From: Candidatus Woesearchaeota archaeon
Lineage (GTDB): Archaea > Nanobdellota > Nanobdellia > SCGC-AAA011-G17 > PNOQ01
DNA: 64,000 nucleotides
NCBI GenBank assembly: GCA_964603065.1
Contig: CAZRTL010000006.1
Span: 84 to 64,083 of the forward strand
Direction of reading: 5' to 3'
Part shown: piece by piece, positions 1 to 43,685 of the stretch
Position numbering within the stretch: the first letter of the stretch is position 1
How the letters are laid out: each line of letters starts with the position of its first letter
Position numbers and translations under genes: made by a program
Notes under the pieces: model-generated
What the model saw: the letters and a program-made list of their open reading frames with translations, nothing else
Database searches by the model: none
Told to the model about the DNA's origin: nothing

Positions 1-2
1 AT

Positions 3-1007
3 TATGACCAAAAGGGCCAGATTATTCAAATTGAAGAGATTATGGATTATGGAATTTTTGAAACTATTTATGATTATGATTTAACTGGAAATGTTATTTC
101 TATTATCAATAGCGTGACTGGGGACATTACATTATATGATTATAATATGGTTGGACAATTAGAGAATGTTTCTTTTAATGGAAATAAGGTTGAATATAGT
201 TATTATGATGATGGGTTAATAGACCAAATAAATTATCCAAACGGAGTATCAACTAATTATATTTATGATACTAGAAATTTTGTTGAAGAAATAAGAATTG
301 ACAATACAGTCGGTAATATATTTGATGAACAGTACTATTATGACAACGTTGGTAACTTGTTAAGAACAGAAGATTGGGAGCCAATAAATAATAATCCTGG
401 AACGGAGGGAAAATGTGCAGAATTTAATTATGATGATTTATACAGGTTAACTGATGTTACCGATAGAGGACAGGGCTGTGATGATAGTCAAGAATGGACT
501 GATTATTACAACCCAAATCCCGATCAAGGAATTGGAGTTAACTTAGATTATACTTATGATGCTGTAGGGAACAGGTTGACTAGGGCTGTTGGAGGATATA
601 TAACTGACCCTTGGGATGAAACTTATATTTATGGCTATGAAGGGGGACAGCCTAGTGGCGCTTCTCAGAACAATAAATTAGCTTTTACCGAATCTGATGT
701 TGTTGGGGATTGTAATTATCATTATGATGCTGCGGGAAATTTAAGAAGTAAAAGATGTAATGATGGTCAGACGAAAGTAGATTATATTGTTGATTATAAA
801 AACATGATAACGGATATAATTTATTATGAATGGATAGATAATGATTATTTATTGACTGGAGAGTCTCTGAGTTTTGAGTATGATGCGTTGGGTAGAAGAG
901 TTAAGAAATTAGTTATAACTTCTGATTCAGAGTTAGAGACAATTTATAGTTATGGTCTTGGAATGAATCCTTTATTTGAAGATACTAGAGAGTTATTGGA
1001 TTCTTAG
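3..1007 (+). CDS. YD/RHS-repeat protein, C-terminal part (the N-terminus lies upstream of the window)
   Basis: Repeated YD motifs (YDYDLTGN, YYDDGLID, YIYDTRN, YYYDNVGN, YTYDAVGN, FEYDALGRR). The reading frame is open to the window edge. The protein ends just before where an RHS core would normally begin. Confidence 0.8.
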   Translation, partial: YDQKGQIIQIEEIMDYGIFETIYDYDLTGNVISIINSVTGDITLYDYNMVGQLENVSFNGNKVEYSYYDDGLIDQINYPNGVSTNYIYDTRNFVEEIRIDNTVGNIFDEQYYYDNVGNLLRTEDWEPINNNPGTEGKCAEFNYDDLYRLTDVTDRGQGCDDSQEWTDYYNPNPDQGIGVNLDYTYDAVGNRLTRAVGGYITDPWDETYIYGYEGGQPSGASQNNKLAFTESDVVGDCNYHYDAAGNLRSKRCNDGQTKVDYIVDYKNMITDIIYYEWIDNDYLLTGESLSFEYDALGRRVKKLVITSDSELETIYSYGLGMNPLFEDTRELLDS

Positions 1008-1043
1008 TAAGCTTTATTAATTCTTTATCTTTGTTTTTATTGT

Positions 1044-1118
1044 GGACTCGTAGCTCAGCTTGGATAGAGCACTTCCCTCCTAAGGAAGGGGTCGAGGGTT
1101 CAAATCCCTTCGGGTCCG
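1044..1118 (+). tRNA. tRNA-Arg(CCT)
   Basis: Manual cloverleaf: acceptor GGACTCG/CGGGTCC, D arm GCTC..GAGC, anticodon stem CTTCC/GGAAG with loop CTCCTAA, T arm GAGGG-TTCAAAT-CCCTC. Confidence 0.85.
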
Positions 1119-1159
1119 CTTGTAGTAATTTTTTTAAATAATGAGGAGTAAATAATGCT

Positions 1160-2428
1160 ATGGGAAAGAGTGTGATATTTGTAGTTTTGCTAATAATTAG
1201 TATTAGTTTAGTTTCTGCTAAAGTTATTGATATCCCCAAAGTTAAACAGGGAAAATTTTTACCAGAAAATATTCAAGAGGATTCTCCAATTGGAATAAAA
1301 AGGTATGTTTATGGTGGTAACTCTTTAGTTGCTTCTCAAGATAGTGAAGGAGTTAAATATTATCATCAAGATAGACTTTGGAGTAATAGAGTAATTACTG
1401 ATTCTTCTGGAAATAAAGATAGTGAGTTTTTGTCTTTGCCTTTTGGACAAGTAGTGATTGAAGGCATAGATTATAGTTTTACTGGAAAAGAGTTAGATTC
1501 TTCTGGATTATATTACTTTGGAGCTAGATATTATGATTCTAATTTGGGAAGGTTTTCTTCTAGGGATCCTGTTCCGAATGAATTACCTTATGCTTATGTT
1601 GGAAATAATCCTATGAATTTTATTGATCCTGATGGAATGGATAGATATTCTATGTTGGCAGGAGATAAATCTATTGTTGGGCATTATCTTACTCCAGTTC
1701 TTCCTTTTAATTATATCAAAGATGTTACTGGATCGACAACTCTTGGTGCTTTAGGAGGGATTGCTTTTATGTTGGGTCATGAATGGGGGGAATATACCAA
1801 TCCTGCGATGTATAATTTTCCTGGCACTATTCAAGGGGCAGGCTATAGTTTTGGTGAATACCTGAATAGTCCTGATACGAGAGAGGATTTAAGATTGGGG
1901 ATAATTGGTTTAGCTGTAGAAAGTTTGAATCTTCCGGTTTCAATTGAAACAGAATCTTTATTTTTATCTGGGCAAGATAATCCTTTGGCTGCTGCCCCTT
2001 ATAATGAAAGAGTTTTTTTCGGTTTAGAATCTGGGAGTATTGAGAATGAGGGTATGTCCTTGAGATTTGGTTTGGTTGCTGGGCATAATGAGCCTGTCGC
2101 TGATGATGCTTTGCCCCTTTCTCATGTTTATACAAATAGGGGAGTAGGATTTGGATTTAGTAGCTTGGGAAGCCATGGCCAGATTGGAGATGCTGGAGAC
2201 TTTTTAGGGTTAGGGATAAGAATAAAGAAAACTCTTTTTTCGATTGATAGTATTGGAGTGAGCTTTCCTGCTTATGGCTTGTTTAGTATTAATCAACCAA
2301 GAGAAGGTAGTTCTTATGGCCAGCTATCTGGAGGGGCCGGCATAGAATTTAATGATTGGGGTAGATTCCCTATACGCATGGTTTCTAGTGGTGATTCGAT
2401 AGGATTGGGTATTGGCGGAAGTTTTTAG
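1160..2428 (+). CDS. Secreted RHS-repeat-associated core domain protein with a Gly-rich C-terminal domain of unknown function (toxin-like cassette)
   Basis: N-terminal signal peptide. RHS core signature YYHQDRLWSNRVITDSSGN...PFGQ...FGARYYDSNLGRFSSRDPV..PYAYVGNNPMNFIDPDG. The RHS core is shared with 5139..6236; the C-terminal domain is different. Confidence 0.75.
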   Translation: MGKSVIFVVLLIISISLVSAKVIDIPKVKQGKFLPENIQEDSPIGIKRYVYGGNSLVASQDSEGVKYYHQDRLWSNRVITDSSGNKDSEFLSLPFGQVVIEGIDYSFTGKELDSSGLYYFGARYYDSNLGRFSSRDPVPNELPYAYVGNNPMNFIDPDGMDRYSMLAGDKSIVGHYLTPVLPFNYIKDVTGSTTLGALGGIAFMLGHEWGEYTNPAMYNFPGTIQGAGYSFGEYLNSPDTREDLRLGIIGLAVESLNLPVSIETESLFLSGQDNPLAAAPYNERVFFGLESGSIENEGMSLRFGLVAGHNEPVADDALPLSHVYTNRGVGFGFSSLGSHGQIGDAGDFLGLGIRIKKTLFSIDSIGVSFPAYGLFSINQPREGSSYGQLSGGAGIEFNDWGRFPIRMVSSGDSIGLGIGGSF

Positions 2429-2432
2429 AAAT

Positions 2433-3266
2433 TTAAATTTTTACAGCAATTCTACCATCTTTTAGAATTCTTACTTTGCCCCCCGATTCTGAAACGGTTA
2501 TTGCTATTGCATTTGTTTCTTTTGTTATAGCCGCACAAGCTCTGTGTTTAGTTCCAAATCCTCCCGGTAAATCTATATCAGAAATATTGATATCTAAATA
2601 TGTTCCTGCGCTTATTATGTGCCCTTCTTCATCTATTATGAAAGCTCCATCCAGTTGAGCAAATTCTTTTACGGTTTCTTTTACAGAAAGATCTGTGATT
2701 TTTATTTTTTCATCTAATCTTCCGAATGGGTTTATTATTAGTTGTTTTAAATATCTGTTTAGCTCCGATATTTCACCAATAATAAAAGCTGTGCCTATTT
2801 TTCTTCCTTCTCTTCCTTCTTGAGAGATTTCTCTTGCTATATCTAAAACAGCTTCAATTATCTCAGGACTTATTTTTTCAGAAATGTTTTGTTTTCCCAT
2901 TTTAAAGAAAACTTCATCAACATCAAATATGAAAAGAACACCTTTATACCCAGTCCCCATACTCCCATCCTCTATACAAACAATTTTCTCTCCTTTTTTT
3001 ATATAATCTTTTGTTATAGACTCCATGAGAATTTCTTTTACAGGAACTATGGAACCAGTCTCTAATCTTTTTATTTTTGTTTTATACTCTATTTTTTTAT
3101 ATACTTTTGGCTGGACTTTTTTAAAAATTGTTACTTTTATATCTAATTTTTCTTCTTCTTCATATTCTTCTTTTTGTATTTTCTCTATAGAAACTATTCC
3201 ATCTGCATTGATTTCTCGGGCTATTTTAGTAGCTGCTGCTCCAATAGACTGCTCAATAAGGTTCAT
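2433..3266 (-). CDS. dacZ: Diadenylate cyclase (DAC domain, DacZ-like)
   Basis: DAC motifs DGAFIID and GTKHRACAAIT followed by VSESGG. Confidence 0.75.
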   Translation of the reverse strand: MNLIEQSIGAAATKIAREINADGIVSIEKIQKEEYEEEEKLDIKVTIFKKVQPKVYKKIEYKTKIKRLETGSIVPVKEILMESITKDYIKKGEKIVCIEDGSMGTGYKGVLFIFDVDEVFFKMGKQNISEKISPEIIEAVLDIAREISQEGREGRKIGTAFIIGEISELNRYLKQLIINPFGRLDEKIKITDLSVKETVKEFAQLDGAFIIDEEGHIISAGTYLDINISDIDLPGGFGTKHRACAAITKETNAIAITVSESGGKVRILKDGRIAVKI

Positions 3267-3303
3267 TTCGTTAGTAGGAGTTAGAATTTATTAAAAAGCC
3301 TTT

Positions 3304-5088
3304 CTATAATTTAGCTTCTATGTTTTCGTTTTTGTCCAAAGATTCAATTAATGTTCTTCCTAATTGGGATTTTTTGTGGATTTGTATTTTTGATTTGTTT
3401 GAAGCTATTGCTGAGAATAAAAACTGTCCATTTAGTGTAAATTCTATTGATTTCTTTACTATGTTTTTTGGAAATTTGAAAACTATATATTTAGCTGTGT
3501 CTGCAACCTCATAAGTTAGAGATTCTTGTCTTTTTAACTTTGGTTTAACTGTTAATTTAATTCCTACTTTGTTTTCAATGTTTTCTATTCTTTTTCCTTT
3601 TGTTCCGATTATTTGGGCAATATCTTTTTCTGGAATGAATATGTTTGCTCTATTTTGTGAGATAATTTCAACTTCTGCATCTTTCGAATATTGTCTTATT
3701 TCTTTTAGTAATTGTTTCTCTGCTAATTTTTGAGATGGAGATTTATCATTTTGAACAGGAATTATTACCGTTTCTTCCCCATAGGAATATATTTCATATG
3801 CTAATGTATTTTCGTTAAAATCAAAAACTTCAATTACTGGACGTGCTAAATCTGCTTCTGTCATTCCTGATGGAACTTTAACTGACATTTTTAGAGTTAG
3901 AACTTTCTCGACTTTTCCCGAGTCCATGAAAATTATTGTATCAACTACTGAAGGAATTAATCCGGTGTCTGTTCGGCCTATAAATCTTTGAACTGCATCT
4001 ATTGCAGAAGCCGAGTGTAAAACTCCAAGGCATTCAGAACCTGCTAACCTTAGATCCATGAATAGTTTGAAATCAGGAGTGTCTCTTATTTCGTCGAAAA
4101 TTAAGTTATCTGGTCTTGAAAGGAATAAAATGTCGTGTATCTCTTCGGATGTTGAAAAGTTTTTTGAGTATTGAGTAATTCTATCATCTAGTTGTAGATC
4201 TCTTGGAGATTCAACTGTTTTTGTTATTTTGTTATTTTGAGCATAATATTCGGCTATTGCCTGAGCTAGAGTTGATTTTCCCGACCCAGTTTCTCCTGCT
4301 ATTAATACTCCTCTAGCTTGAGCCTTTACTCTTTCTAATAAAGATTCATCTAATTTATAATCATCTAAGTTTAACTTTTTAATTGGTCTTATTGCAGTTA
4401 TTTCAAGACCATCAGAAATTGGTTTTCTTACTATAACTATTCTGTAGTTTTTATATTGTATTACTGTTGAACCCGAACGTGAAATTTCTACAAAGGATTT
4501 TGGATCCATTCTAGCTTTTTCAATTATTTCTTTGGCTAATTCATTTATTTTTTTGTATTTTAATTTTTTTCCTGTTTTGACAAGTTGCCAGTTTCCTGGA
4601 GCGCCTCTTTTTGCTAGGGGTATGGAATCTTCTTTTAGATGAACTGACATAGTTGTTTTGTCGAAATATTTTTCTATGCTTAATTTTTGTTTTGGTCTAA
4701 CTTGTTCTATGAAATTTACTTCTAGACCATAAACTCTTGCAGACTCTGCTTGAACTATGTCTGCAGTTATTAATGTAGAAGACTCTTCGTATGCAATTTG
4801 CCTTATCATTGCATCTATTTCACCAGATTTTGCAAATTTAATTTGATCGGGAGTTGGCCTAGATCCAACAAACCTTAATTCTACTTTCCCTTGTTTCTTT
4901 AGTTCTTGAAGTTTTTTTAGTTCATCAAGTCCAAGAAATCCAGTTTCTTTTCTTCTATTTGCTTGAGCTTCAAGTTCTGAAACTGCTGCATTTGCTATGA
5001 TTATTGTTCCCTGTATCTCTTTTTTTTCTATTGATTCAGAAATAACTCCTTCAATTATTGCAGAAGTATCTGGTACATATGTTTTCAT
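3304..5088 (-). CDS. PIN-domain / PilT-like ATPase / KH-domain protein
   Basis: N-terminal PIN-like region. Walker A GETGSGKST. C-terminal KH motif IIGTKGKRI. Confidence 0.6.
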   Translation of the reverse strand: MKTYVPDTSAIIEGVISESIEKKEIQGTIIIANAAVSELEAQANRRKETGFLGLDELKKLQELKKQGKVELRFVGSRPTPDQIKFAKSGEIDAMIRQIAYEESSTLITADIVQAESARVYGLEVNFIEQVRPKQKLSIEKYFDKTTMSVHLKEDSIPLAKRGAPGNWQLVKTGKKLKYKKINELAKEIIEKARMDPKSFVEISRSGSTVIQYKNYRIVIVRKPISDGLEITAIRPIKKLNLDDYKLDESLLERVKAQARGVLIAGETGSGKSTLAQAIAEYYAQNNKITKTVESPRDLQLDDRITQYSKNFSTSEEIHDILFLSRPDNLIFDEIRDTPDFKLFMDLRLAGSECLGVLHSASAIDAVQRFIGRTDTGLIPSVVDTIIFMDSGKVEKVLTLKMSVKVPSGMTEADLARPVIEVFDFNENTLAYEIYSYGEETVIIPVQNDKSPSQKLAEKQLLKEIRQYSKDAEVEIISQNRANIFIPEKDIAQIIGTKGKRIENIENKVGIKLTVKPKLKRQESLTYEVADTAKYIVFKFPKNIVKKSIEFTLNGQFLFSAIASNKSKIQIHKKSQLGRTLIESLDKNENIEAKL

Positions 5089-5138
5089 AATTTTGTTATT
5101 AGGAAAGGTTTTTATATACTTTTTCTTTTTAATATAGT

Positions 5139-6236
5139 ATGAAGAAGAGTGTGATTTTGGTAGTGTTACTGTTATTATTTATTCCTATATCTAGTTCTAA
5201 AACTGTTGATATACCCGGAGTTGAAAGAGGAAGTTTAATTGGCGAGGATGTTCCTTCAGAGCCCTTACAAGAAATAGGAGTAACTAGATACGTTTATGCA
5301 GGAAATAACTTAGTGGCTTCTCAAGTTGGAAATGATATTAAGTATTATCATCAAGATAGACTAGGAAGTAATAGATTAATTACAGATTCTTCCGGAAATG
5401 AAGATGGAGAGTTTTTATCTTTACCTTTTGGACAGCCTGTTGTTGATGAAGTTGAGTATGGTTTTACAGGAAAAGAGCAAGATTCTTCAGGTTTACATTA
5501 TTTTGGAGCGAGATATTATGATTCAAATTTAGGAAGATTTACTTCTAGAGATCCAGTTCTTAGTGAACTTCCTTACGCTTACGTTTCTAACAATCCTATG
5601 AATTTCATTGATCCTAGTGGAGCTATTCGAGAGTACGCTATTCAGAAGGGAGACGATTTGACTAAAATCAGTGAGCGTTTTGATACTAGTGTAGATGAGC
5701 TTGTTAAATTGAATAACCTACAAGATCCAAATTTAATTAAGGTGGGCCAAATGATTAGACTGCCGGATTTTTCTTTATCTAAATCTTCTGAATCTAGACT
5801 AAGCACTGTTGATTCCGACTTAGCGAAAGTTATTAGAGAGGCCCAAAAAGACTCCCCATTTGAGTTCCAAATAGTCGAAGGAAAAAGAACTAGGACCAGG
5901 CAATCTGACCTTTATAAAAAAGCAAGAAAATGGGTTGGAAAAGGCCAGACTCAAGATCCCACTGCCAATAATGTTCATCTTTGGGTTCCTATAAAAACTA
6001 ATTCTAAAGGGAGATGCGTCGGATGTGTTACTTGGACTTTGAGTTCTAAACATTTTTCTGGAAAAGCCGTGGATTTGGTGGAAGTTGACTCTAAAGGAAA
6101 TTTTGATTGGAACTATCCTCACTATAAAGAGATCTCGGCTCACATAAAAGCTACTGCTAAGAGAATGGGAATAACTATTGAATGGGGTGGAGATTGGAAG
6201 GATGATCGCGACATCCCACATTGGCAAGTTAAATAA
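5139..6236 (+). CDS. Secreted RHS-core domain protein with LysM and peptidase-M15 (LAS metallopeptidase) C-terminal domains
   Basis: Signal peptide. The RHS core (YYHQDRLGSNRLITDSSGN...FGARYYDSNLGRFTSRDPV) is paralogous to 1160..2428. LysM: YAIQKGDDLTKISERF...VGQMIRLP. M15 motifs SKHFSGKAVDL and WGGDW..DIPHWQ. Confidence 0.75.
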   Translation: MKKSVILVVLLLLFIPISSSKTVDIPGVERGSLIGEDVPSEPLQEIGVTRYVYAGNNLVASQVGNDIKYYHQDRLGSNRLITDSSGNEDGEFLSLPFGQPVVDEVEYGFTGKEQDSSGLHYFGARYYDSNLGRFTSRDPVLSELPYAYVSNNPMNFIDPSGAIREYAIQKGDDLTKISERFDTSVDELVKLNNLQDPNLIKVGQMIRLPDFSLSKSSESRLSTVDSDLAKVIREAQKDSPFEFQIVEGKRTRTRQSDLYKKARKWVGKGQTQDPTANNVHLWVPIKTNSKGRCVGCVTWTLSSKHFSGKAVDLVEVDSKGNFDWNYPHYKEISAHIKATAKRMGITIEWGGDWKDDRDIPHWQVK

Positions 6237-6253
6237 ATGGCCCCCTAGAATGT

Positions 6254-6967
6254 TTAAATCTTTCTTAGAAATAATAAAAATCCGGTGTGGCCGAGCATTT
6301 GATTTTCTGGCCTTATAATTCCTTTTTCATATTTCCAGTTTCTTTCTAAAATTTCAATGAAATCAGTTACTTGTAAGTTTTCAGTTAAATTATCTAAAAC
6401 ATTTTGAATTTGAGGTATTGTTGGTACATAAATTACTAAGAATCCTCCAGAAGTTAAAGCTGATTCTGCATGTTTTAAAACTAAATGAGGCTTTTCTAAA
6501 TCTAAATTAATTAAATCTAGATCTTTTTCGTCGATTCCTTCGTAAATATCTTTATTTTTTATAGTTATATTTTTTAATCCTAAATCTTCAAAATTCTTTT
6601 CTGCTATTTTTATAAAATCTTTTCTTTTTTCATATGCTATTACTTTTTTTGCTATGTTTGCTAAGGAAGAAGTTAACATTCCGGAGCCAATTCCACAATC
6701 TAGAACTTTTGAATCTTTGTTTACTCCGGTTTCTATTATAATTCTTCCAATATCTTTTGAAGTCATTATTTGAGGACCTCTTTTTATTTTTTTTAGATTA
6801 TCTGGGAATTTTGCATCGTAAACTGAGAATTCTTTTTTTGTGTTTGATAAGACTTTTGATTTAGTTTTTATGTCTTTTTCTTTAATAACTCCAAAATTAG
6901 TATGAAGATCTCCTTCGCTCCAGTAAAACTTTTTGTTTTCTCTTTGAAGTATTTTTTTGTATTTCAT
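6254..6967 (-). CDS. trmI: tRNA (adenine-N1)-methyltransferase TrmI/Gcd14 family
   Basis: SAM-binding motif VLDCGIGSGMLTSSLA plus TrmI-like flanking regions. The start is moved to MKYKK because the upstream ORF extension is translation of tRNA-Leu. Confidence 0.6.
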   Translation of the reverse strand: MKYKKILQRENKKFYWSEGDLHTNFGVIKEKDIKTKSKVLSNTKKEFSVYDAKFPDNLKKIKRGPQIMTSKDIGRIIIETGVNKDSKVLDCGIGSGMLTSSLANIAKKVIAYEKRKDFIKIAEKNFEDLGLKNITIKNKDIYEGIDEKDLDLINLDLEKPHLVLKHAESALTSGGFLVIYVPTIPQIQNVLDNLTENLQVTDFIEILERNWKYEKGIIRPENQMLGHTGFLLFLRKI

Positions 6968-6975
6968 TTTAGAAA

Positions 6976-7059
6976 TGCAGGAGACAGGGTTCGAACCTGC
7001 GTAGGCACTAAGCCGAAGGATTTTGAGTCCTCCCCGTTTGACCACTCCGGCACTCCTGC
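6976..7059 (-). tRNA. tRNA-Leu(CAA), long variable arm
   Basis: Reverse complement GCAGGAG..GAGGA-CTCAAAA-TCCTT, long variable arm, T arm CAGG-TTCGAAC-CCTG, acceptor closes. Confidence 0.8.
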
Positions 7060-7133
7060 ATGTTTTTTGTGTAATTATTTTGATTTAAAAGTCTTATGGA
7101 AAGCTTTTTAATTTTGTATTTTTTCTTTTAGTT

Positions 7134-7985
7134 ATGCCAACTAATGTAACTCCAGAATATCAGAGAGCTGAAAAGGAATATTTTCAAGCTGAAGGAATAA
7201 AAGAGAAAGTAAAGTGTTTGCAGAGAATGCTATCTGTTGCTCCCAGCCATAAGGGAGGAGAGAAACTAAGAAAAGATATTAAACAAAGAATAGCTAGATA
7301 TAAATCTCTATTGGAGAAAGAGAAACAGGCTGGCAAGGGCAAGGGGGGAGGTCTAACTATTAAAAAAGAAGGATCTGCCCAAGTTGTTTTGATAGGTAAA
7401 ACTAATTCTGGAAAATCTTTTTTGTTGGGTAAAATTACTAATGCTAATCCTGAAATAGCCGAGTATGAACATACTACAAAAATTCCTGAAATTGGAACTA
7501 TGGAATATAATGGAGTGCCTATACAAATTGTTGAAATGCCCGCCATAACTGAAAATTATTTAGAAAAAGAAAAAGGGCCTATGTTTTTGGGTATTATTCG
7601 TGGAGCAGACTTAATAGTTATTTTAGCTGAAGATAAAGCTGAAGAGAAGTTTATTATAAAAGAATTGGAATTGGTTGGAATAAAAGGAGATAGGATTGTT
7701 GTTAGGAAGAAAGAGGATCCGTATCATATTAAAAATAAAATTTGGAGTTTTTTAAATTTAATTTATGTTTTTACCAAAACCCCGGGAAAGGAAAAAGATT
7801 ACCCTCCCCTTGCTTTAAAGAAAAGATCTACAGTAAGAGATTTAGCTTTGAATGTACATAAGGATTTTGTCAAAAAGTTTAGTTTTGCTAAAGTGTGGGG
7901 AAGATCTGCCAAACACGAAGGTATGAAATGTGGATTGAAACATGTTTTACAAAGTGGAGATATTATTGAGTTACACACAAAATGA
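7134..7985 (+). CDS. DRG/Obg-like GTP-binding protein with C-terminal TGS domain (G3/G4 motifs degenerate)
   Basis: P-loop GKTNSGKS. DRG-like N-terminal helix. TGS-like C-terminus. The DxxG and NKxD motifs are not conserved. Confidence 0.5.
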   Translation: MPTNVTPEYQRAEKEYFQAEGIKEKVKCLQRMLSVAPSHKGGEKLRKDIKQRIARYKSLLEKEKQAGKGKGGGLTIKKEGSAQVVLIGKTNSGKSFLLGKITNANPEIAEYEHTTKIPEIGTMEYNGVPIQIVEMPAITENYLEKEKGPMFLGIIRGADLIVILAEDKAEEKFIIKELELVGIKGDRIVVRKKEDPYHIKNKIWSFLNLIYVFTKTPGKEKDYPPLALKKRSTVRDLALNVHKDFVKKFSFAKVWGRSAKHEGMKCGLKHVLQSGDIIELHTK

Positions 7986-8530
7986 GAAGAGATAAATTTA
8001 CTTCAAGGGCAAAAAGTGAGGGATACAAGGCGAGAAGTGTCTTTAAACTGAAAAATTTAGATAATAAATTTAAGTTAATAAAAAAAGAAGATAAAATTTT
8101 GGATTTAGGAGCATGGCCAGGCAGTTGGAGTCAATACTCTTTGGAGAAAGGTGCGGAAGTTGATGCAGTTGATGTTGCCAAAATTAAGATAGATGGAATT
8201 AATTTTATTGAGGCAAATGTTTTTGATGAAGATCTAATTGAAAAATTAGATATGTATGACATTGTAATGAGCGATTTAGCTCCCAAAACAATTGGAGTTA
8301 GGAAAATAGATAATGAAGCAAGTTTTGAACTGAGTATGCGGGCATTAGAAATAGCAAAAGAAGTTTTAATTAAAAAGGGAAGTTTTATCTGTAAAATTTT
8401 CCAAAGTGAATTTTTTGATAAATTTTTAAAAGAAGTGAAAAAAGAATTTAGATCTGTTAAAGTAATAAAGCCAGAGGCTTCTAAAAAAAGAAGTAAGGAA
8501 ATTTATATCATCGGTATTAGAAAGATTTAA
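7982..8530 (+). CDS. rlmE: 23S rRNA 2'-O-ribose methyltransferase RlmE/FtsJ
   Basis: FtsJ motifs RSRAAFKL-like (YKARSVFKLKNL), DLGAWPGSWSQ, MSDLAPK. Overlaps the preceding gene in an ATGA junction. Confidence 0.8.
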   Translation: MRRDKFTSRAKSEGYKARSVFKLKNLDNKFKLIKKEDKILDLGAWPGSWSQYSLEKGAEVDAVDVAKIKIDGINFIEANVFDEDLIEKLDMYDIVMSDLAPKTIGVRKIDNEASFELSMRALEIAKEVLIKKGSFICKIFQSEFFDKFLKEVKKEFRSVKVIKPEASKKRSKEIYIIGIRKI

Positions 8531-8555
8531 ATAAATCTTTTTTCAATTTTATTTT

Positions 8556-10874
8556 ATGAAGAGATGGTGGTTATTAATTTTTGGATTGATTTTATTTAGT
8601 TTTAGTGTTAATGCTATTCCTTGTGATGGATATTGGAATGGTGAACTTTCTAATCCAGTTAGTTTTGTAGATTGTGATTTTGATTGTGATAATTATGATT
8701 ATCAAAATCTTTGCGAAGGACAAGATCCTAATAAAGTTGAATGTTTTGGTGAAGATAGTGTTGGTGTAGATGGTCCTCCTGATGGAGTGGGAGATGTCTT
8801 ACATAAATGTCAATGGAATAATAATCAGTGTATAAATTGGTTCCATGACGGAGATTCTAATGTAGTTTATAATAGTGGTTCAACGGATTCTTTTTCTTCG
8901 TACTCTTTTCTTGAATCTGTTTGTTATAATCCATTAAGTGTTCCTGACTCTTGCGATTGGTTAAAAGGAAGTTTTGTTATAGAGAGAGGATTTTGTCAGT
9001 ATCATGGAAATCCACCTCTTTTTGCAGAAATTAAAGGCCTTTCAGAATCTGACCCTTATCAAAATTGTGTTAATGATGTAAATAATCTTTTTGACTTGAA
9101 AGAAGCTTGGGGGCAGAATACACGGGCAGTTCAGTTACCCGGTTTTTCTGGAGGGAGTAGTAGTTATAGGTTGGGGGGATTTTGTTTAAATTATTGTAGA
9201 GAGTATTCTGGTTATGTTGATGATTTTGGATTATGTGGCAATGATGGTGGGGTGGTTAATGGATGGGCACATAATAACTGTCCTAACGTTAGATATGAAG
9301 ATTCTTGTGCTGGTTCTATTTTACGTGAATACTCTTGTGATGGAACCCAGACTAATCCATCTACCACTTGGGCAGATGGGGTTAATTATTTGTTGACTAC
9401 GACCGATTGCTATTCTCCTGGAGGACCTGCAACTTGCGACAATAGTTGTGGAACTTCTTCTAATTCTGGAACTGATACGTGCAGATTGGGAGATGGAGGA
9501 GGATATTGTACAGGTACGGGACTAAATGCTCGTTGTGAGAGTGGAGGATCTTCTCCTGATTTAGATGATGGGGAGAGTTATGTTACTGAGTTTAACAATG
9601 AATGTTCTTCAGGTGGTGGATGGACTGGAAGTGTTGATTGGGCCAATGGAGGAAGTATTGGGTATTATGGGGAGTATAATAATGAACTTTATTGGAAAGA
9701 GGCAATTATTTATGATGAGGGAGGGATTTTTATTTTTGGGCAGAATGATACCTCAGATAGAGGAGATTTTGAAACCGAAGCATGTGGAGACGATGAAAAT
9801 GAGTTTTTTATAGGGGGGTTATGTTGTGATGATTCTAATGATCAAATTTTGAGTAATGTAATAGATAATATTGATGATATTTTTGATATGAATGGAAGTT
9901 ATTGTATGGATGCCAATATAGGTAGTTGTGGTAATTTAGTGAAGGATTCCTGGGAACAATGTGATGGACTATATATAGATTATAATAGGACTATTCTGGC
10001 CGGTTCTAATATGGCAACTACTTCTGAACTTTATTTAGTTCTAGGTAATGATTCTGCCTGCGGAGGAGATATTTGTGATTTGAATACTTGTACTTGTTCG
10101 GGTAGTCCGCCAATAAATTGTCAGTTAGGGAATGCTCATTGGGGCCCTACTAAGTCTAATGATAATGTAGTAGAAGGAGAAACTATAGATTTAATTATTG
10201 ATGGTACTGACTGTGATGGATTAGGAGTTGAATTTTTTGTAAAAGAGAGCGATGGAGTTTTTGGAGTACAAGATTGGGATAGTGCGGATTGGGTTTTGAT
10301 TTATGGTAATTCTCCTATTGGTTCTGCAACTTTTGAGGGCAATAAAGCAAATTTTACCTGGACTTCAGTTTGGACTGACGATGATGATAGTTGGGATTCG
10401 GACCCAGAATATATTTTTAGAGCAATTTCGACAAGTGATTCGTCTTTATATAAAAATTCTTTTGATGAACTTAAAGTTAGTCAAAATCCTGCTGGAGATT
10501 GTGAAATTGATTTGGGTGAAGAATGTTGTATTGCGGGCGAGGTTTGTTCTGGCGGGAATTGGGATGGAAGCGGAGCCATTTGTTCTGCTGGAGAGAGTTG
10601 TTGTTTGACTGTATGTTCTAACCCTTTAGATTATCCTGGATCTATTGATGGAACTTATATGGGATGGGGTGAATGTATTGATGATGGAGATGGGGATAGT
10701 GTCGGAATAAGAAAAACTTACCTTTATAATTCAACTACAGGAATACTTATTAATGAAATAGGGTCGGAGGAATGTATATTTGGAGAAGAAGAGATTCCCT
10801 TCTTTAGTAATTTCGCAATGTTTTTGGTATTTTTTATATTGATAGGATTCTATTTTTGGAATCGAAAGAAATAA
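8556..10874 (+). CDS. Large cysteine-rich secreted surface protein with C-terminal transmembrane anchor
   Basis: Signal peptide. Very high Cys content with repeated C-x-C spacing. C-terminal hydrophobic helix followed by RKK. Confidence 0.5.
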   Translation: MKRWWLLIFGLILFSFSVNAIPCDGYWNGELSNPVSFVDCDFDCDNYDYQNLCEGQDPNKVECFGEDSVGVDGPPDGVGDVLHKCQWNNNQCINWFHDGDSNVVYNSGSTDSFSSYSFLESVCYNPLSVPDSCDWLKGSFVIERGFCQYHGNPPLFAEIKGLSESDPYQNCVNDVNNLFDLKEAWGQNTRAVQLPGFSGGSSSYRLGGFCLNYCREYSGYVDDFGLCGNDGGVVNGWAHNNCPNVRYEDSCAGSILREYSCDGTQTNPSTTWADGVNYLLTTTDCYSPGGPATCDNSCGTSSNSGTDTCRLGDGGGYCTGTGLNARCESGGSSPDLDDGESYVTEFNNECSSGGGWTGSVDWANGGSIGYYGEYNNELYWKEAIIYDEGGIFIFGQNDTSDRGDFETEACGDDENEFFIGGLCCDDSNDQILSNVIDNIDDIFDMNGSYCMDANIGSCGNLVKDSWEQCDGLYIDYNRTILAGSNMATTSELYLVLGNDSACGGDICDLNTCTCSGSPPINCQLGNAHWGPTKSNDNVVEGETIDLIIDGTDCDGLGVEFFVKESDGVFGVQDWDSADWVLIYGNSPIGSATFEGNKANFTWTSVWTDDDDSWDSDPEYIFRAISTSDSSLYKNSFDELKVSQNPAGDCEIDLGEECCIAGEVCSGGNWDGSGAICSAGESCCLTVCSNPLDYPGSIDGTYMGWGECIDDGDGDSVGIRKTYLYNSTTGILINEIGSEECIFGEEEIPFFSNFAMFLVFFILIGFYFWNRKK

Positions 10875-12836: not shown

Positions 12837-14846
12837 CTATTTAAGCTTTTTTATTGGTAAAGTAAAATAAAATGTTGAACCCTTACCTAAAGTACTTTCA
12901 ACCCAAATTTTACCTCCATGTTGTTTTATTATTCCCCTACAAATACTTAAACCCAACCCAGTTCCCCCATATTTTCTAGTATAGCTAGATTCTAATTGAG
13001 TAAATGAATGAAATATTCTCTCACGATCTTTCTTAGATATTCCTATGCCCGTATCTTTTATTTTGACTAAAATATAATCTTTTTCTCTTTTAGCTTCAAT
13101 ATTTATTCCACCTTTATGTGTAAATTTAATGGCATTATCGATTAAATTAGTTAATATTTCTGTTATTCTTTTTTTGTCTGCCGTAATTAAGGGGAGGCTA
13201 TCTAATTTATAATCAAGTTCTAAACCTTTTTTCTCTGCTACTGGAGTCATACTTTTCACCACCAAGCCAACACAATCTCCCAATTGTATTTCACTAAGTT
13301 TTAGTTTAAACCCTTCTGCTTGTACCCTAGAGATTTCCAAAATATCTTCTATTAAGTCATTAAGACGGTTTATATTTCTAAGTATAATATCGAAACTCTT
13401 TTTTTGTTTTTCATTTAATTTTCCTAAATCTCCTTGTAATATCATTTGGGTTTGTATTTTTGCAGGAGTTAAAGGAGTTTTTAATTCATGGGAAGTTATA
13501 GTTAGAAATCTACTTTTTAGAACATCTAATTCTTTTAATTTTTTGTAAGATTCTTTTAATTTTTTTTCAGATTCCTTTTCTTTACTTATATCTCTCACTG
13601 TAGCTTGCAGTACTCCCTTGCCCAAGAGGTTCATTCTGGTTAATAAGACCGTTGCAGGGAAAACTTGTCCATCTAATCTTTTGTGATCCCATTCAAAAAG
13701 GTGTTTTCCTTTTTTCATTGCAGTATTTATCATTTCCATGGCTTTAGTGGAAGATAATTTTCCATCAGGTTGATTTTTTGGGGAATACTGCCAAGGAGCT
13801 TTAGATGTAAAATCTTTTTCATTTTTGGCTTTAAACATTTTTATTGTTGATGGATTTCCTGCGGTGAATTTCCATGTAGGGGGTTCTAAAATCATTATTG
13901 CATCGCTCGATGATTCGTACATTGTATTTGCTTTTTCATAAACTTCTTTTAATTTTCCTCGAGCTTGTCTTATTTCGGTAATATCCCTATCAATCCCCCT
14001 ATAACCTAGTAGTTTGCCTTTTGAATCTATAATAGGTACACCATTTGTTTCAAGTACAACAATTTTTCCATTTTTATGTTTATTTTTATTAATTAAACCA
14101 GAAAATGATTTTTTTAATTTTACAATGTTTGCAAATTCGGGGCCAAGCTTTTTAGCATCTTCCTTTGTCATTAAGTCGAAAGGAGTTTTCCCTATAATCT
14201 CTTTGGGGGAATACCCAAGTATATCTTTAATTTTTGGACTAGCGTATGTATAAGTGCCTTTCGCATTAACTTCCCAAATCCAATCAGAAGTAGATTCTAC
14301 TAGCCCCCTAAATTTTTCCTCACCTTCTCGTAATTTTATAGTTCTTTTCTTAATTTTGATTTCTAATTCTTCATGGGATTTTTTTAATTTTTTTTCTGCT
14401 TTTATTCTATCAGTAATGTCTGTATTAATTCCAACATATCCAGTAATTTCACCTTTGACATTTTTCAATGCTGCAGCAGTTCCATAAACCCAAGTTACTC
14501 TTTTTTTTCTATCTATTAGTCGGTACTCTGTCCCCCATTTACCTCCGGCCTTAACTGTTTTATACCAATTTTTCTCCACTTTTTTTCGATCATCTGGATG
14601 AATCCCATTTATCCACCCCTTTCCAAGAGTTTCTTTTATTGTTAATCCAGTCATATTACGCCAAAAAGTATTCACAAAAGTACAATTTCCTTTTTTATCA
14701 GTCATATAAATTGCTGAAGGAGAAGAAGAGATAAGTGTTTTGAATTTTTCTTCGCTTTCAATCAATTTTGCTTTTTCTTCTTCTAAATCTTCTAAAATAT
14801 TAAGCAGGGCCTCAGGTTTCAATAATAGATTTTTCTTGGATTTCAT
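12837..14846 (-). CDS. PAS-domain sensor histidine kinase
   Basis: Multiple PAS-like repeats. HisKA H-box ITSHELKTPLT. HATPase motifs DTGIGI and GGTGLGLSI. Confidence 0.85.
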   Translation of the reverse strand: MKSKKNLLLKPEALLNILEDLEEEKAKLIESEEKFKTLISSSPSAIYMTDKKGNCTFVNTFWRNMTGLTIKETLGKGWINGIHPDDRKKVEKNWYKTVKAGGKWGTEYRLIDRKKRVTWVYGTAAALKNVKGEITGYVGINTDITDRIKAEKKLKKSHEELEIKIKKRTIKLREGEEKFRGLVESTSDWIWEVNAKGTYTYASPKIKDILGYSPKEIIGKTPFDLMTKEDAKKLGPEFANIVKLKKSFSGLINKNKHKNGKIVVLETNGVPIIDSKGKLLGYRGIDRDITEIRQARGKLKEVYEKANTMYESSSDAIMILEPPTWKFTAGNPSTIKMFKAKNEKDFTSKAPWQYSPKNQPDGKLSSTKAMEMINTAMKKGKHLFEWDHKRLDGQVFPATVLLTRMNLLGKGVLQATVRDISKEKESEKKLKESYKKLKELDVLKSRFLTITSHELKTPLTPAKIQTQMILQGDLGKLNEKQKKSFDIILRNINRLNDLIEDILEISRVQAEGFKLKLSEIQLGDCVGLVVKSMTPVAEKKGLELDYKLDSLPLITADKKRITEILTNLIDNAIKFTHKGGINIEAKREKDYILVKIKDTGIGISKKDRERIFHSFTQLESSYTRKYGGTGLGLSICRGIIKQHGGKIWVESTLGKGSTFYFTLPIKKLK

Positions 14847-16225
14847 TTTTTGTTTTTTGTAAGCTTCTTTTTTAATTCTATCATTTTTTCTTCTCTTTTA
14901 ATTGCAACTTTTGTAAATCTTTCAAGATCTAGAGATTTTTTCTTTATACCCATTTCTGCCTTTTTACGTATTTTAATTTCAGATTGAAGTTGTTTATTAT
15001 GTGTTTCTAATTCTTTTCTTTTTTTCCTTAATTCAAATGCCATCTTATTGATAGAATCTCCGAGTTCTCCTATTTCATCTTTTGATTTTATTTTTACCCT
15101 AGGTCTTAGGTTTCCCTTTCCGATTTGAATTGCAGTATTTTTGAGTTTTATTATGGGTTTTGAAATATTGTGTGCAATGAAAATACTTATTAAAACTGAA
15201 ATTGCTAGAAAAATAAATAATATGAGAAAAATACTGTTTCTTAATTCCTCCACTGGTTTAAGTATCTCTTCTGTTTCATGTTCTATCATTAATATCCAAT
15301 CCAATCCTTTGTAATTTTTGTGGCCGTGAGAGTGAGTATGGGCAAATAATATTTTTCCTTCTTCCGGTTCAAGTTCATCTGAAATGAAAGAATTATTTTC
15401 TTCTTTTTCAAGTCTGGATAGTAACTTTTCTGACACTCGATCTAGGATCCCGTAATCATAATATTCTTCAGACGCATAAATTATTTTTCCATCAGAAGTT
15501 AATAGTTTGAGGTGCATTGTTTCATGTTTTTCAGTCAGTTCTATTTCTTTGAGCATGCTGATTAATTCTTCTATATTCAAAACGACTTTCATTACTCCCA
15601 AAAAATTTCCAGATTCATCGCTTATTTTTATTCCTGCAGAGATAGAATAAATACTTGTGCTTTCGTCATATTCAATATTTTCTATATATAGTTCTTCTTC
15701 ACTCGCCTTTTGCCACCATACTTCATCATCTTGCTTGTAATCTGTGGTTTTTCCAGTTTGAGCGATATTTGCCCCATATTTGTTAGTCACAAAAACTTCT
15801 CCATATACTTTATATCCTTCTTCCTTCTCATGGAAATCTGATTTTTTTCTTAGCTGCTGCGATATTTTATTGTTGATTAAGTTTTGCATAAATGGAGTAA
15901 TTTCTTCTTTTGAAGTGGATATCCAATCTTCATTTTTTTCATTGATATATGATTCGATATCTTCAAAATTGTCGAATTCTTGGTTGGATTCAATGATAAA
16001 ATTATGTAATTCTCTACTGGCATAGGCATATGAATGCCACGCTTCGAATCTATTTTGTATATTTCTATCAATTTTATCCATAGTTTCTTTAACTAAAACT
16101 ATGGAGGATTCCTCTATTGATTTTTCTAGTGTTTGTTGACTAATATCAACAGAAATATAACCCATCAATCCCATGAGTAGAGCGATTACCAAAAATCCCG
16201 ATATTAATTTTTGGTTTAATTTCAT
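14843..16225 (-). CDS. Membrane sensor protein with extracellular (Cache-like) domain, HAMP domain and coiled coil
   Basis: N-terminal TM, about 300-aa periplasmic-type domain, second TM, then a HAMP-like segment (IKLKNTAIQIGKGNL...DEIGELGDSINKMAFEL). Overlaps the kinase gene. Confidence 0.6.
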   Translation of the reverse strand: MKLNQKLISGFLVIALLMGLMGYISVDISQQTLEKSIEESSIVLVKETMDKIDRNIQNRFEAWHSYAYASRELHNFIIESNQEFDNFEDIESYINEKNEDWISTSKEEITPFMQNLINNKISQQLRKKSDFHEKEEGYKVYGEVFVTNKYGANIAQTGKTTDYKQDDEVWWQKASEEELYIENIEYDESTSIYSISAGIKISDESGNFLGVMKVVLNIEELISMLKEIELTEKHETMHLKLLTSDGKIIYASEEYYDYGILDRVSEKLLSRLEKEENNSFISDELEPEEGKILFAHTHSHGHKNYKGLDWILMIEHETEEILKPVEELRNSIFLILFIFLAISVLISIFIAHNISKPIIKLKNTAIQIGKGNLRPRVKIKSKDEIGELGDSINKMAFELRKKRKELETHNKQLQSEIKIRKKAEMGIKKKSLDLERFTKVAIKREEKMIELKKKLTKNKK

Positions 16226-43567: not shown

Positions 43568-43641
43568 GAGCCTGTGGCGTAGTCTGGTAGCGCATCACGT
43601 TGACTTCGTGAGGGTCGGGAGTTCGAATCTCCCCGGGCTCA
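43568..43641 (+). tRNA. tRNA-Val(GAC)
   Basis: Acceptor GAGCCTG/CGGGCTC, anticodon stem TCACG/CGTGA with loop TTGACTT, T arm GGGAG-TTCGAAT-CTCCC. T6 follows. Confidence 0.85.
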
Positions 43642-43685
43642 TTTTTTGCATAACATTTATAAAGATAAAAAGGGATTTTTTATAC

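Follow-up and report, generated by a model that had tools for sequence, protein, structure and literature searches.

The window that we analyzed is a stretch of 64,000 nucleotides (nt) from a Candidatus Woesearchaeota archaeon (contig CAZRTL010000006.1), and coordinates below are window positions unless a locus name precedes them. Its left end carries the end of a YD-repeat/RHS shell gene that has no RHS-associated core, followed by two small genes, here called cassettes, each encoding a core plus a C-terminal domain; the arrangement suggests a two-component toxin system. The original prediction had described positions 1-6236 as an RHS/YD polymorphic-toxin-like locus of an archaeal genome, split into a shell gene and separate cassettes, and profile hidden Markov model (HMM) searches, alignment and comparative tests upheld that description. 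L-numbers (such as L001) denote genome loci that were compared with the window and P-numbers denote clusters of homologous proteins. The features of the locus are as follows (aa, amino acids):

1..1007, + strand: 3' end (last 334 codons and stop) of the coreless YD/RHS shell gene (PF05593, TIGR01643)
1044..1119, + strand: tRNA-Arg(CCT) between the shell gene and cassette 1 (ARAGORN), its position kept in the syntenic relative L005
1130..1139, + strand: TATA-box-like TTTTTAAATA, a candidate archaeal promoter 21-30 nt 5' of the cassette 1 start codon (sequence pattern only)
1160..2428, + strand: cassette 1 gene, 422 aa (TIGR03696, Rhs_assc_core)
1160..1219, + strand: predicted signal peptide of cassette 1, aa 1-20, MGKSVIFVVLLIISISLVSA (sequence; helix at residues 3-18 in AlphaFold2 (AF2); leader found family-wide)
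1220..1636, + strand: constant region of cassette 1, with linker (KVIDIPKV...), YD hairpins RYVYGGNSLVAS and VKYYHQDRLWS, and RHS-associated core/plug
1625-1636, + strand: DPDG motif of cassette 1, the end of the constant region
1637..2428, + strand: variable C-terminal domain of cassette 1, 263 aa and stop, an orphan Gly-rich domain without Pfam, NCBIfam or PDB match
2433-3266, - strand: diadenylate cyclase DacZ, a housekeeping gene outside the system (PF02457, NF041371)
3304-5088, - strand: PINA-type PIN/KH ATPase, a housekeeping gene outside the system (NF010335, 743 bits; NF053733)
5110..5117, + strand: TATA-box-like TTTATATA, 22-29 nt 5' of the cassette 2 start codon (sequence pattern only)
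5139..6236, + strand: cassette 2 gene, 365 aa (TIGR03696)
5139..5621, + strand: predicted signal peptide (aa 1-20) and constant region of cassette 2, up to DPSG (aa 158-161, nt 5610-5621)
5622..6236, + strand: variable C-terminal domain of cassette 2, LysM plus M15C/VanY-type Zn peptidase (PF01476, PF13539)

The open reading frame (ORF) listing and the HMM searches placed the stop of the YD-repeat gene at 1007 (PF05593, 1.6e-9; TIGR01643, 6e-6) with the tRNA-Arg behind it, just as predicted. The further claim that this gene stops exactly where an RHS core would begin was half right: the gene is coreless, but its stop lies two YD hairpins before the core boundary. TIGR03696 recognized the RHS core in both cassettes, as had been expected from the sequence, with 73 bits in cassette 1 (aa 94-160) and 76.9 bits in cassette 2 (aa 96-161) against a cut-off of 32.5. 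Both proteins begin with Sec-type leaders, MGKSVIFVVLLIISISLVSA|K and MKKSVILVVLLLLFIPISSS|K (the bar marks the predicted cleavage), and they are 65% identical over aa 1-170 (~80% at the nt level) and unrelated right after DPxG, consistent with the earlier description of signal peptides joined to a shared core and unrelated C-termini. DacZ (PF02457) and the PIN-ATPase (NF010335) lie between the cassettes on the other strand, as had been noted. Cassette 1 is followed 5 nt on by the convergent DacZ gene and cassette 2 by a convergent methyltransferase gene and a tRNA-Leu gene; no immunity-like ORF after either cassette was present in the window's ORF listing, in line with the original prediction. 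A tblastn search of the window with the shell tail and both cassettes detected no RHS copies beyond the two cassettes.

We read the full shell gene from the same contig in other assemblies (L001/L002), which recovered the part of the YD gene that had been sought upstream of the window. The gene starts ~5.3 kb upstream of the window and has 2,061-2,095 codons (~2,090 aa); in L001 it spans 3561-9848. Its protein carries its own Sec-type leader (...LSLVFVLMLLVFSNASFSLA|EDE), and tblastn with the core found no RHS core in the full gene, the only cores being those of the two cassettes. The repeats occupy the last third of the protein (~650 aa of YD repeats; full-length PF05593, 3.7e-16) and run up to a final hairpin, ...ETIYSYGLGMNPLFEDTRELLDS*; the PDB matches were the RhsA and Tse5 shells. 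At its N-terminus stands the motif GD.TFS.PL..LPGR.G....L.L.YSS.GV...GLGWSL, which we take to be SpvB/TcB-like. The shell orthologue of L013 matched PF03534 (SpvB) with 24.9 bits (cut-off 22) on the aligned motif, and a weak precomputed SpvB match was found for a shell of the complete genome CP060219.1. Single-sequence and 4-sequence-profile searches with the shell N-terminus gave nothing in the PDB. A homologue search with the shell tail returned short bacterial RHS fragments only and did not retrieve full-length archaeal shells. Upstream of the shell gene lies an archaeal type IV pilin-like gene (TIGR02537), preceded by a gene for a 284-aa secreted protein.

To place the break, the shell tail and the cassette N-termini were aligned to unsplit archaeal RHS proteins of Bathyarchaeota (L027), Theionarchaea (L022) and Thermoplasmatota (L061). 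The last hairpin of the shell, ...FEYDALGRRVKK...ETIYSYGLGMNPLFED (ending ...IYSYGLGMNPLFED), corresponds to ...YTYDAGGRRV...TDYVYSGLIVIDEI of L027. The hairpin that comes after it, RYVYGGNSLVAS...KYYHQDRLGS, is matched by KYIYAGSMHLAS...EYYHVDHLGS and is the one that opens the homologous region of the cassettes. The two pieces neither overlap nor leave out a repeat between the shell end and the cassette start. Because the two hairpins are adjacent without a gap, shell and cassette together make up one canonical RHS protein, cut two repeats before the core. We joined the shell tail of the window to the constant region of cassette 2 and modeled the product in AF2; this artificial fusion, which serves as a consistency check and not as evidence of trans-assembly, gave an uninterrupted hairpin wall with a predicted local distance difference test score (pLDDT) of 74 and a predicted template modeling score (pTM) of 0.77. 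The model superposes best on TcC subunits, namely YenC2 (TMq 0.68) and TccC3 (0.65-0.72), and the plug of cassette 1 aligns with the C-terminal plug residues of TccC3 and YenC2. When cassette 1 was modeled alone, residues 45-95 formed confident hairpins and the plug was poorly defined (pLDDT ~50).

The cassettes belong to a large family. Two homologue searches yielded ~190 distinct clusters of cassette-type proteins, whose source names are 'archaeon', Woesearchaeota or Pacearchaeota and whose N-termini nearly all read MKKxVI...A|K. DPxG was present in 158 of the 191 family matches (median end residue 156), followed by a C-terminal region with a median length of 243 aa (5-95%: 196-282), and the C-termini of these 158 members fall into 108 clusters by BLAST or 89 by phmmer. 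Among 125-143 family members, R123, D136-P137 and D156-P157-x-G159 do not vary. The Rhs aspartyl autoprotease is recognized by two DP motifs, the second Asp being the catalytic one (PMC8636562); the invariant Arg (of ARYYD) and DP residues of the family match this signature, and catalysis is predicted from the sequence. We further scanned one genome per GTDB species with the cassette leader plus core (query residues 1-161). Among the top-ranked matches, those spanning the full leader and core were almost all in Woesearchaeota or 'archaeon' metagenome-assembled genomes (MAGs). The exception was an Acidobacteriota locus (L075, residues 2-161), where the match lies inside a long ORF; bacteria otherwise match the core alone, within long RHS genes. 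Woesearchaeota proteins are already annotated automatically by NCBI as 'RHS repeat-associated core domain-containing'.

Right after the predicted leader cleavage, a motif, A|K-[VT]-[IV]-D-[IV]-P-x-V, is conserved family-wide (window 1220-1250 and 5199-5230). A second motif, Y-x-[YF]-G-x-G-x-[SN]-P-L, stands near the end of all coreless archaeal shells examined and is absent from unsplit RHS proteins. Judging from these sequences, the post-leader motif and the terminal motif of the shell are possible docking elements.

Coreless shells cluster with leader-bearing core genes in at least five archaeal lineages and in one bacterial lineage. In L005 and L006 (a relative with ~80% nt identity), the order is pilin, shell (1,793-1,814 aa), tRNA-Arg, cassette 1 orthologue, DacZ and PINA, followed by a cassette 2 with LysM and a different C-terminus and then by a second large YD protein. 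The Woesearchaeota MAG of L010 carries a coreless shell of 1,804 aa with a leader-bearing cassette only 4 nt behind it, and two further cassettes are present, making three in all, with near-identical constant regions and different C-termini. The shell of L013 is followed by two cassettes, and the P0128 locus has a large YD gene 5.5 kb downstream. In the complete Woesearchaeota genome CP060219.1 (L090/L091, ~471.9-495.1 kb), a pair of neighboring shell genes with leaders, which encode an SpvB-RHS protein (1,898 aa) and a YD-shell-CBM_4_9 protein (1,144 aa), is flanked by four cassettes, and cores occur in the cassettes only. The bacterial case comes from an Acidobacteriota MAG (CAVTIA010000012; L083:4897-11280), in which a 1,671-aa leader-bearing coreless RHS protein with repeated C-terminal domains is followed 20 nt on by a 327-aa gene with a Tat/Sec leader, a core and a C-terminus. 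A 122-aa ORF with several transmembrane segments overlaps the stop codon of this core-toxin gene and is a candidate immunity gene. The split in L083 lies one hairpin later than in the archaea, and the locus is an independent bacterial case of an analogous split.

Several details of these relatives were noted in passing. The shell of CP060219 itself appears to be split in two, and the core-cargo proteins of that genome start with an N-terminal hydrophobic anchor and an acidic Val-rich linker (~90-120 aa) instead of a short leader. In L005, a 143-aa leader-bearing ORF ending in ...RLTFGAEANF (L005:11263-11694, - strand) directly follows the cassette 1 orthologue; it is absent from the window, where DacZ comes 5 nt past cassette 1. 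The shell of L010 has a C-terminal extension (L010:5136-5477) in which, by eye, two dockerin-like repeats (DLNFDGDVDIADFGIF... and DLDGNGHVGIADLGIF...) follow the terminal hairpin.

The 284-aa secreted protein encoded two genes before the shell (L001:2315-3169, ~7 kb upstream of the window start) is homologous to the C-terminal cargo of one L010 cassette (L010:5487-6704; 34% over 220 aa, E=4e-30), the one that directly follows the shell gene. L005, L006 and the P0128 locus each have a gene of similar size (272-288 aa) at that position, the likeness being one of size and position. Since the domain is free in one lineage and fused to a core in another, beside shells in both, it may be an accessory factor and not a toxin.

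The cargo of the cassettes is exchanged between strains. Homology between the DNA of the window and L088 is continuous from 3305, in PINA, to 5621, the end of the cassette 2 constant region. It is lost right behind DPSG (5610-5621) and starts again at 6248, within the methyltransferase gene. At the cassette 2 slot, L088 and L089 carry LysM plus Peptidase_C39_2, compared to LysM plus M15 in the window, so that relatives do have a different C-terminus at the same locus, a possibility raised by the original prediction. From the sequences compared, this is a replacement of the C-terminus at one locus with its breakpoint after DPxG. Elsewhere, L088 has an extra 415-aa core-cargo gene (L088:8403-9650) with an MscS-type channel gene on one side and a NAGPA-domain gene on the other. 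This cassette and the channel gene have no counterpart in the window; different chromosomal slots gain and lose cassettes.

Selection was estimated against the L005 orthologues as the ratio of nonsynonymous to synonymous substitution rates (dN/dS):

Shell tail: 0.12
Cassette 1 constant region: 0.33
Cassette 1 C-terminus: 0.25
Cassette 2 constant region: 0.25
DacZ: 0.08
PINA: 0.05

With a dN/dS of 0.25, the C-terminus of cassette 1 is under purifying selection.

The C-terminal domain of cassette 2 is readily assigned, confirming the LysM plus M15 composition proposed for it. LysM (PF01476, 1.2e-13) covers aa 166-209 (nt 5634-5765) and Peptidase_M15_4 (PF13539, 4.5e-7, 30.8 bits, cut-off 25) covers aa ~226-364. 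In the PDB, the peptidase matched ChiX (5opz, 4e-16), 23ri (4.5e-15), 8q2g (2e-14), a 'peptidoglycan L-alanyl-D-glutamate endopeptidase', and the T5 endolysin (2mxz). The Zn-binding and catalytic motifs SxHxxGxAxD and DxPH are kept, with 'SSKHFSGKAVD' and 'DIPHW' aligning with ChiX. By homology, the cassette 2 C-terminus is LysM plus a predicted M15C L-Ala-D-Glu endopeptidase. The C-terminus of cassette 1 is, as predicted, a Gly-rich domain; it is an orphan (16% Gly, ending in ...GLGIGGSF) that had no match in Pfam, NCBIfam or the PDB, and phmmer among 1.84 billion representatives detected no relative beyond its own cluster. Structure prediction had been proposed for the C-terminal domains; it was run for that of cassette 1, which AF2 left effectively unmodeled (pLDDT ~35), with no fold. 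Across the family, only ~10% of C-termini contain a Pfam domain, those recognized being LysM (5 members), M15_4, Peptidase_C39_2, Pesticin, Ntox47, PT-HINT, PT-TG and others.

Twenty percent of the family C-termini (31/158), from many unrelated clusters and including cassette 1, end in Phe (P0033, P0039, P0043, P0063, P0064, P0067, P0130 and P0168 are among them). These tails (...GLGIGGSF, ...NFGISYDF, ...VGVKYGF) resemble the beta-signals of bacterial outer-membrane proteins, and the Gly fraction of the Phe-ended C-termini is higher (0.115 vs 0.095, p=0.001). Ten Phe-terminated C-termini gave no match to an outer-membrane-protein Pfam family at E<=5. More speculatively, the Phe-ended cargoes could be beta-barrel pore-formers that insert into the outer membrane of a Gram-negative target.

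With moderate confidence, we favor the reading that in this Woesearchaeota-type DPANN archaeon the locus encodes a split RHS polymorphic toxin system with two components, built like the BC part of Tc toxins and using interchangeable plug-toxin modules. The first component would be the Sec-exported shell of ~2,090 aa, with a SpvB/TcB-like N-terminus, a middle region and YD repeats, which would form a cocoon wall without a plug. The second would be the small Sec-exported cassette proteins, supplying the last two YD hairpins, the autoprotease core/plug and a cargo of ~200-280 aa after DPxG. After export, a plug-cargo module would complete and close the shell, leaving the cargo enclosed or tethered; the core would then cut after DPxG, and the loaded cocoon would deliver the cargo into a neighboring cell. 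Paralogous modules, with near-identical constant regions and unrelated cargoes, would share one shell, so that payload diversity would arise at the level of protein assembly. Homologous recombination within the ~480-nt constant region would also swap cargoes between strains. The narrow range of cargo lengths could, in our interpretation, reflect a container of limited volume.

A bolder version of the proposal, which we put forward tentatively, is an extracellular combinatorial container, in which a plug-less shell is closed by any of several plug-cargo proteins from loci around the genome to give an immunity-free arsenal against bacteria, with peptidoglycan hydrolases among its cargoes. For cassette 2, inter-domain antagonism is plausible, since its predicted product is a peptidoglycan peptidase without a substrate in an archaeon. 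As peptidoglycan is found only in bacteria, cassette 2 would need no immunity gene; this leaves cassette 1 unexplained.

The closest known parallel is the BC complex of Tc toxins (TcB plus TcC; Photorhabdus TcdB2-TccC3, Yersinia YenB-YenC1/2/3). There, two separately encoded polypeptides form an RHS cocoon, as is proposed for the archaeal pair, and the second polypeptide bears the core/plug, the aspartyl autoprotease and a hypervariable cargo (~250-300 aa). TcB has a SpvB-type N-terminus, and orthologues of our shell gave the SpvB matches mentioned above. One TcB has been reported to package TcC proteins from distinct loci (PMC11067744), and the cargo-bearing archaeal paralogues would share a shell in the same way. 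The two systems also differ. TcC contributes ~680 aa, about half of the shell, compared to ~115 aa (two hairpins plus plug) from the archaeal second component; a Sec leader is present on both archaeal components and on no Tc subunit; an archaeon makes the present system, and no TcA-like translocator was found among the large window ORFs scanned; and one archaeal cargo is a predicted peptidoglycan hydrolase and not a eukaryote-directed enzyme.

Several observations weigh against the two-component proposal. Many cassettes stand alone among housekeeping genes, without a shell gene within 10 kb. SpvB had no match at E<=0.1 in the shell of this lineage, which is thus below threshold for the domain. 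The plug region of the fusion model has low confidence (pLDDT 47-63), and the signal peptides were judged by eye from the sequence and the AF2 helix and not by a predictor. As both components would be exported separately as unfolded chains, their co-folding would have to occur outside the cell. No TcA-like Pfam match was obtained among the large ORFs scanned, a search limited to the window, and no delivery device was identified there. In addition, a peptidoglycan hydrolase can act extracellularly, so that its need for encapsulation is not obvious.

The main rival explanation, possible in our view, is that the cassettes are stand-alone secreted pro-toxins to which the shell does not matter. Their RHS end would serve only as a self-cleaving pro-domain or intramolecular inhibitor, from which the C-terminal enzyme is freed after Sec export, in the manner of PT-HINT or other pre-toxin domains, and the coreless YD protein would have a separate role as an adhesin-like protein of the cell surface. 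The dispersal of paralogues just mentioned is what such pro-toxins would show. Both cassettes come with a start codon, a leader and a TATA-like element of their own, the autoprotease residues do not vary, and a LysM-peptidoglycan peptidase could attack exposed cell walls from outside. Stand-alone pro-toxins do not account, however, for a break exactly at a hairpin boundary that lets shell and cassette add up to one canonical RHS protein, nor for coreless shells conserved under purifying selection and repeatedly clustered with cassettes, even 4 nt apart, in the archaeal and bacterial lineages described above. The failure of AF2 to fold the plug alone with confidence and the narrow C-terminal length (196-282 aa), expected from a volume-limited container, also argue for the two-component system.

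It is improbable that the locus is a classical rhs system in decay or in waiting, with the shell as a truncated main gene and the cassettes as orphan modules kept for recombination and not for expression. The layout, a large YD gene followed by core-plus-C-terminus units, does recall main-gene plus orphan arrays, a likeness that the original prediction had noted, and Bathyarchaeia MAGs (L037, L047) do hold true orphan cassettes, which have neither start codon nor leader. The cassettes of the window are instead complete genes under selection (dN/dS 0.25-0.33) that belong to a large, uniform family, with signal peptides conserved in hundreds of relatives. The shell and the cassettes have no core sequence in common on which recombination could act, the coreless state is kept across lineages only 33-49% identical, and housekeeping genes on the opposite strand separate the two cassettes.

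Other features set the locus apart from classical Rhs and WapA proteins (E. coli/Enterobacter Rhs, B. subtilis WapA). WapA-type proteins are Sec-exported. YD repeats, a TIGR03696 core up to DPxG and unrelated C-terminal toxins are common to all of them, as is the replacement of the C-terminus between strains with its breakpoint at DPxG. Classical proteins are single polypeptides, however, whereas shell and core-toxin are separate leader-bearing genes here; classical orphans have no start codons or leaders and are silent until recombined, while the cassettes have both; and an immunity gene follows each classical toxin but neither cassette. The original prediction had further regarded RHS toxin systems as essentially bacterial, which does not hold: classical RHS polymorphic toxins were reported in Methanosarcina (Zhang et al. 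2012, PMC3482391), and we found unsplit full-length RHS genes along with classical orphan cassettes in Bathyarchaeia, Theionarchaea and Thermoplasmatota MAGs.

That faulty assembly or binning joined a bacterial RHS fragment to an archaeal contig is very unlikely, and this idea was rejected: RHS systems are far commoner in bacteria and two family members carry the NCBI label 'Cryomorphaceae bacterium', but the discordant GC sought as a sign of a chimera was not seen (GC is flat at 0.28-0.38 across the whole window), the identical locus occurs in at least four independent metagenome assemblies, it is syntenic in related species, where archaeal genes (DacZ, PINA, tRNA and methyltransferase) surround and separate the cassettes, and the top genome matches over the whole leader and core are nearly all archaeal, as described. 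The two labels concern P0060/P0199, a single 90%-identity cluster labeled both 'Cryomorphaceae bacterium' and 'Candidatus Woesearchaeota archaeon', and the mixture suggests that the former is probably a mis-binned contig. HMM searches found the window archaeal throughout (thermosome, ELP3, SRP54, DacZ, PINA), and the interleaving of archaeal housekeeping genes indicates that the locus is native.

Archaeal hydrolases that act on bacteria have precedents. For archaeal peptidoglycan hydrolases, a bacteria-killing role has been proposed or demonstrated (Strock et al. 2025, PMC12352652), and murein hydrolases were described in 'predatory' Woesearchaeota (Vigneron et al. 2022, PMC9723730). These are likewise secreted archaeal proteins with peptidoglycan-binding and -cleaving domains and no substrate in the producer; here, by contrast, an RHS-core module carries the hydrolase as its variable cargo. 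The term 'RHS' has 0 occurrences in PMC12352652 and PMC9723730, and neither mentions a core domain. Bacterial teneurin-like proteins (Raoelijaona et al. 2026, PMC13018210) resemble the present system in being Sec-exported and in having a plug, a propeller, a YD shell and a polymorphic C-terminal toxin, but each is one polypeptide with FN-plug and NHL domains, immunity genes accompany them, and no split was described. Archaeal RHS polymorphic toxins and bacteria-targeting archaeal peptidoglycan hydrolases are therefore already known. We found no literature on leader-bearing minimal RHS-core proteins or on a shell/core gene split, and a prior account is possible in the main survey of archaeal polymorphic toxins, Makarova et al. 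2019 (mBio 10:e00715-19).

If the two-component proposal is true, RHS/Tc encapsulation would extend to a minimal plug module of ~115 aa able to carry any cargo of ~250 aa. The smallest unit for loading an RHS cocoon would thereby be defined, which would be useful for engineering Tc-like delivery devices, and payload diversity could come from mix-and-match at the protein level and not from DNA rearrangement. For uncultivated DPANN archaea, the system would be a molecular weapon concrete enough to test. Bacteria are the sole possible target of at least part of its cargo (LysM plus M15, C39-like or pesticin-like hydrolases), which bears on whether Woesearchaeota parasitize or prey on bacteria. 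The ~90% of family cargo domains without a Pfam match form a reservoir of uncharacterized toxins or enzymes.

A few further observations concern the surroundings of the cassettes. A sigma-70 promoter and terminator scan performed at chance level and was uninformative. In a small sample, tRNA genes often lie within tens to hundreds of nt of core-cargo genes (window 1044-1119 and 6975-7060; L005:9884-9959; L012:9874-9947; L011:11504-11580). The tRNA-Arg is 41 nt 5' of cassette 1, as kept in L005, and a tRNA-Gly is 54 nt 5' of the L012 gene. This proximity may reflect insertion hot-spots or shared promoters.

Further along the window, the ORF at 45653-52672 (+ strand; 2,339 aa) has Peptidase_M15_4 at its extreme C-terminus (aa 2247-2314) as its sole Pfam match. 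A close kinship of this domain with the M15 domain of cassette 2 was considered and rejected (BLASTP E=0.2). Counting cassette 2, M15 peptidoglycan-peptidase domains thus occur at least twice in the genome, on proteins that are large or secreted. A 682-aa ORF without a Pfam match (43608-45656, + strand) precedes the 2,339-aa ORF with a 4-nt overlap. The ORF at 8556-10874 (+ strand) encodes a 772-aa Cys-rich protein with a leader and a C-terminal transmembrane segment, without a Pfam match, and a PAS/HisKA/HATPase histidine kinase lies beside a dCache/HAMP protein at 12837-16225 (- strand).

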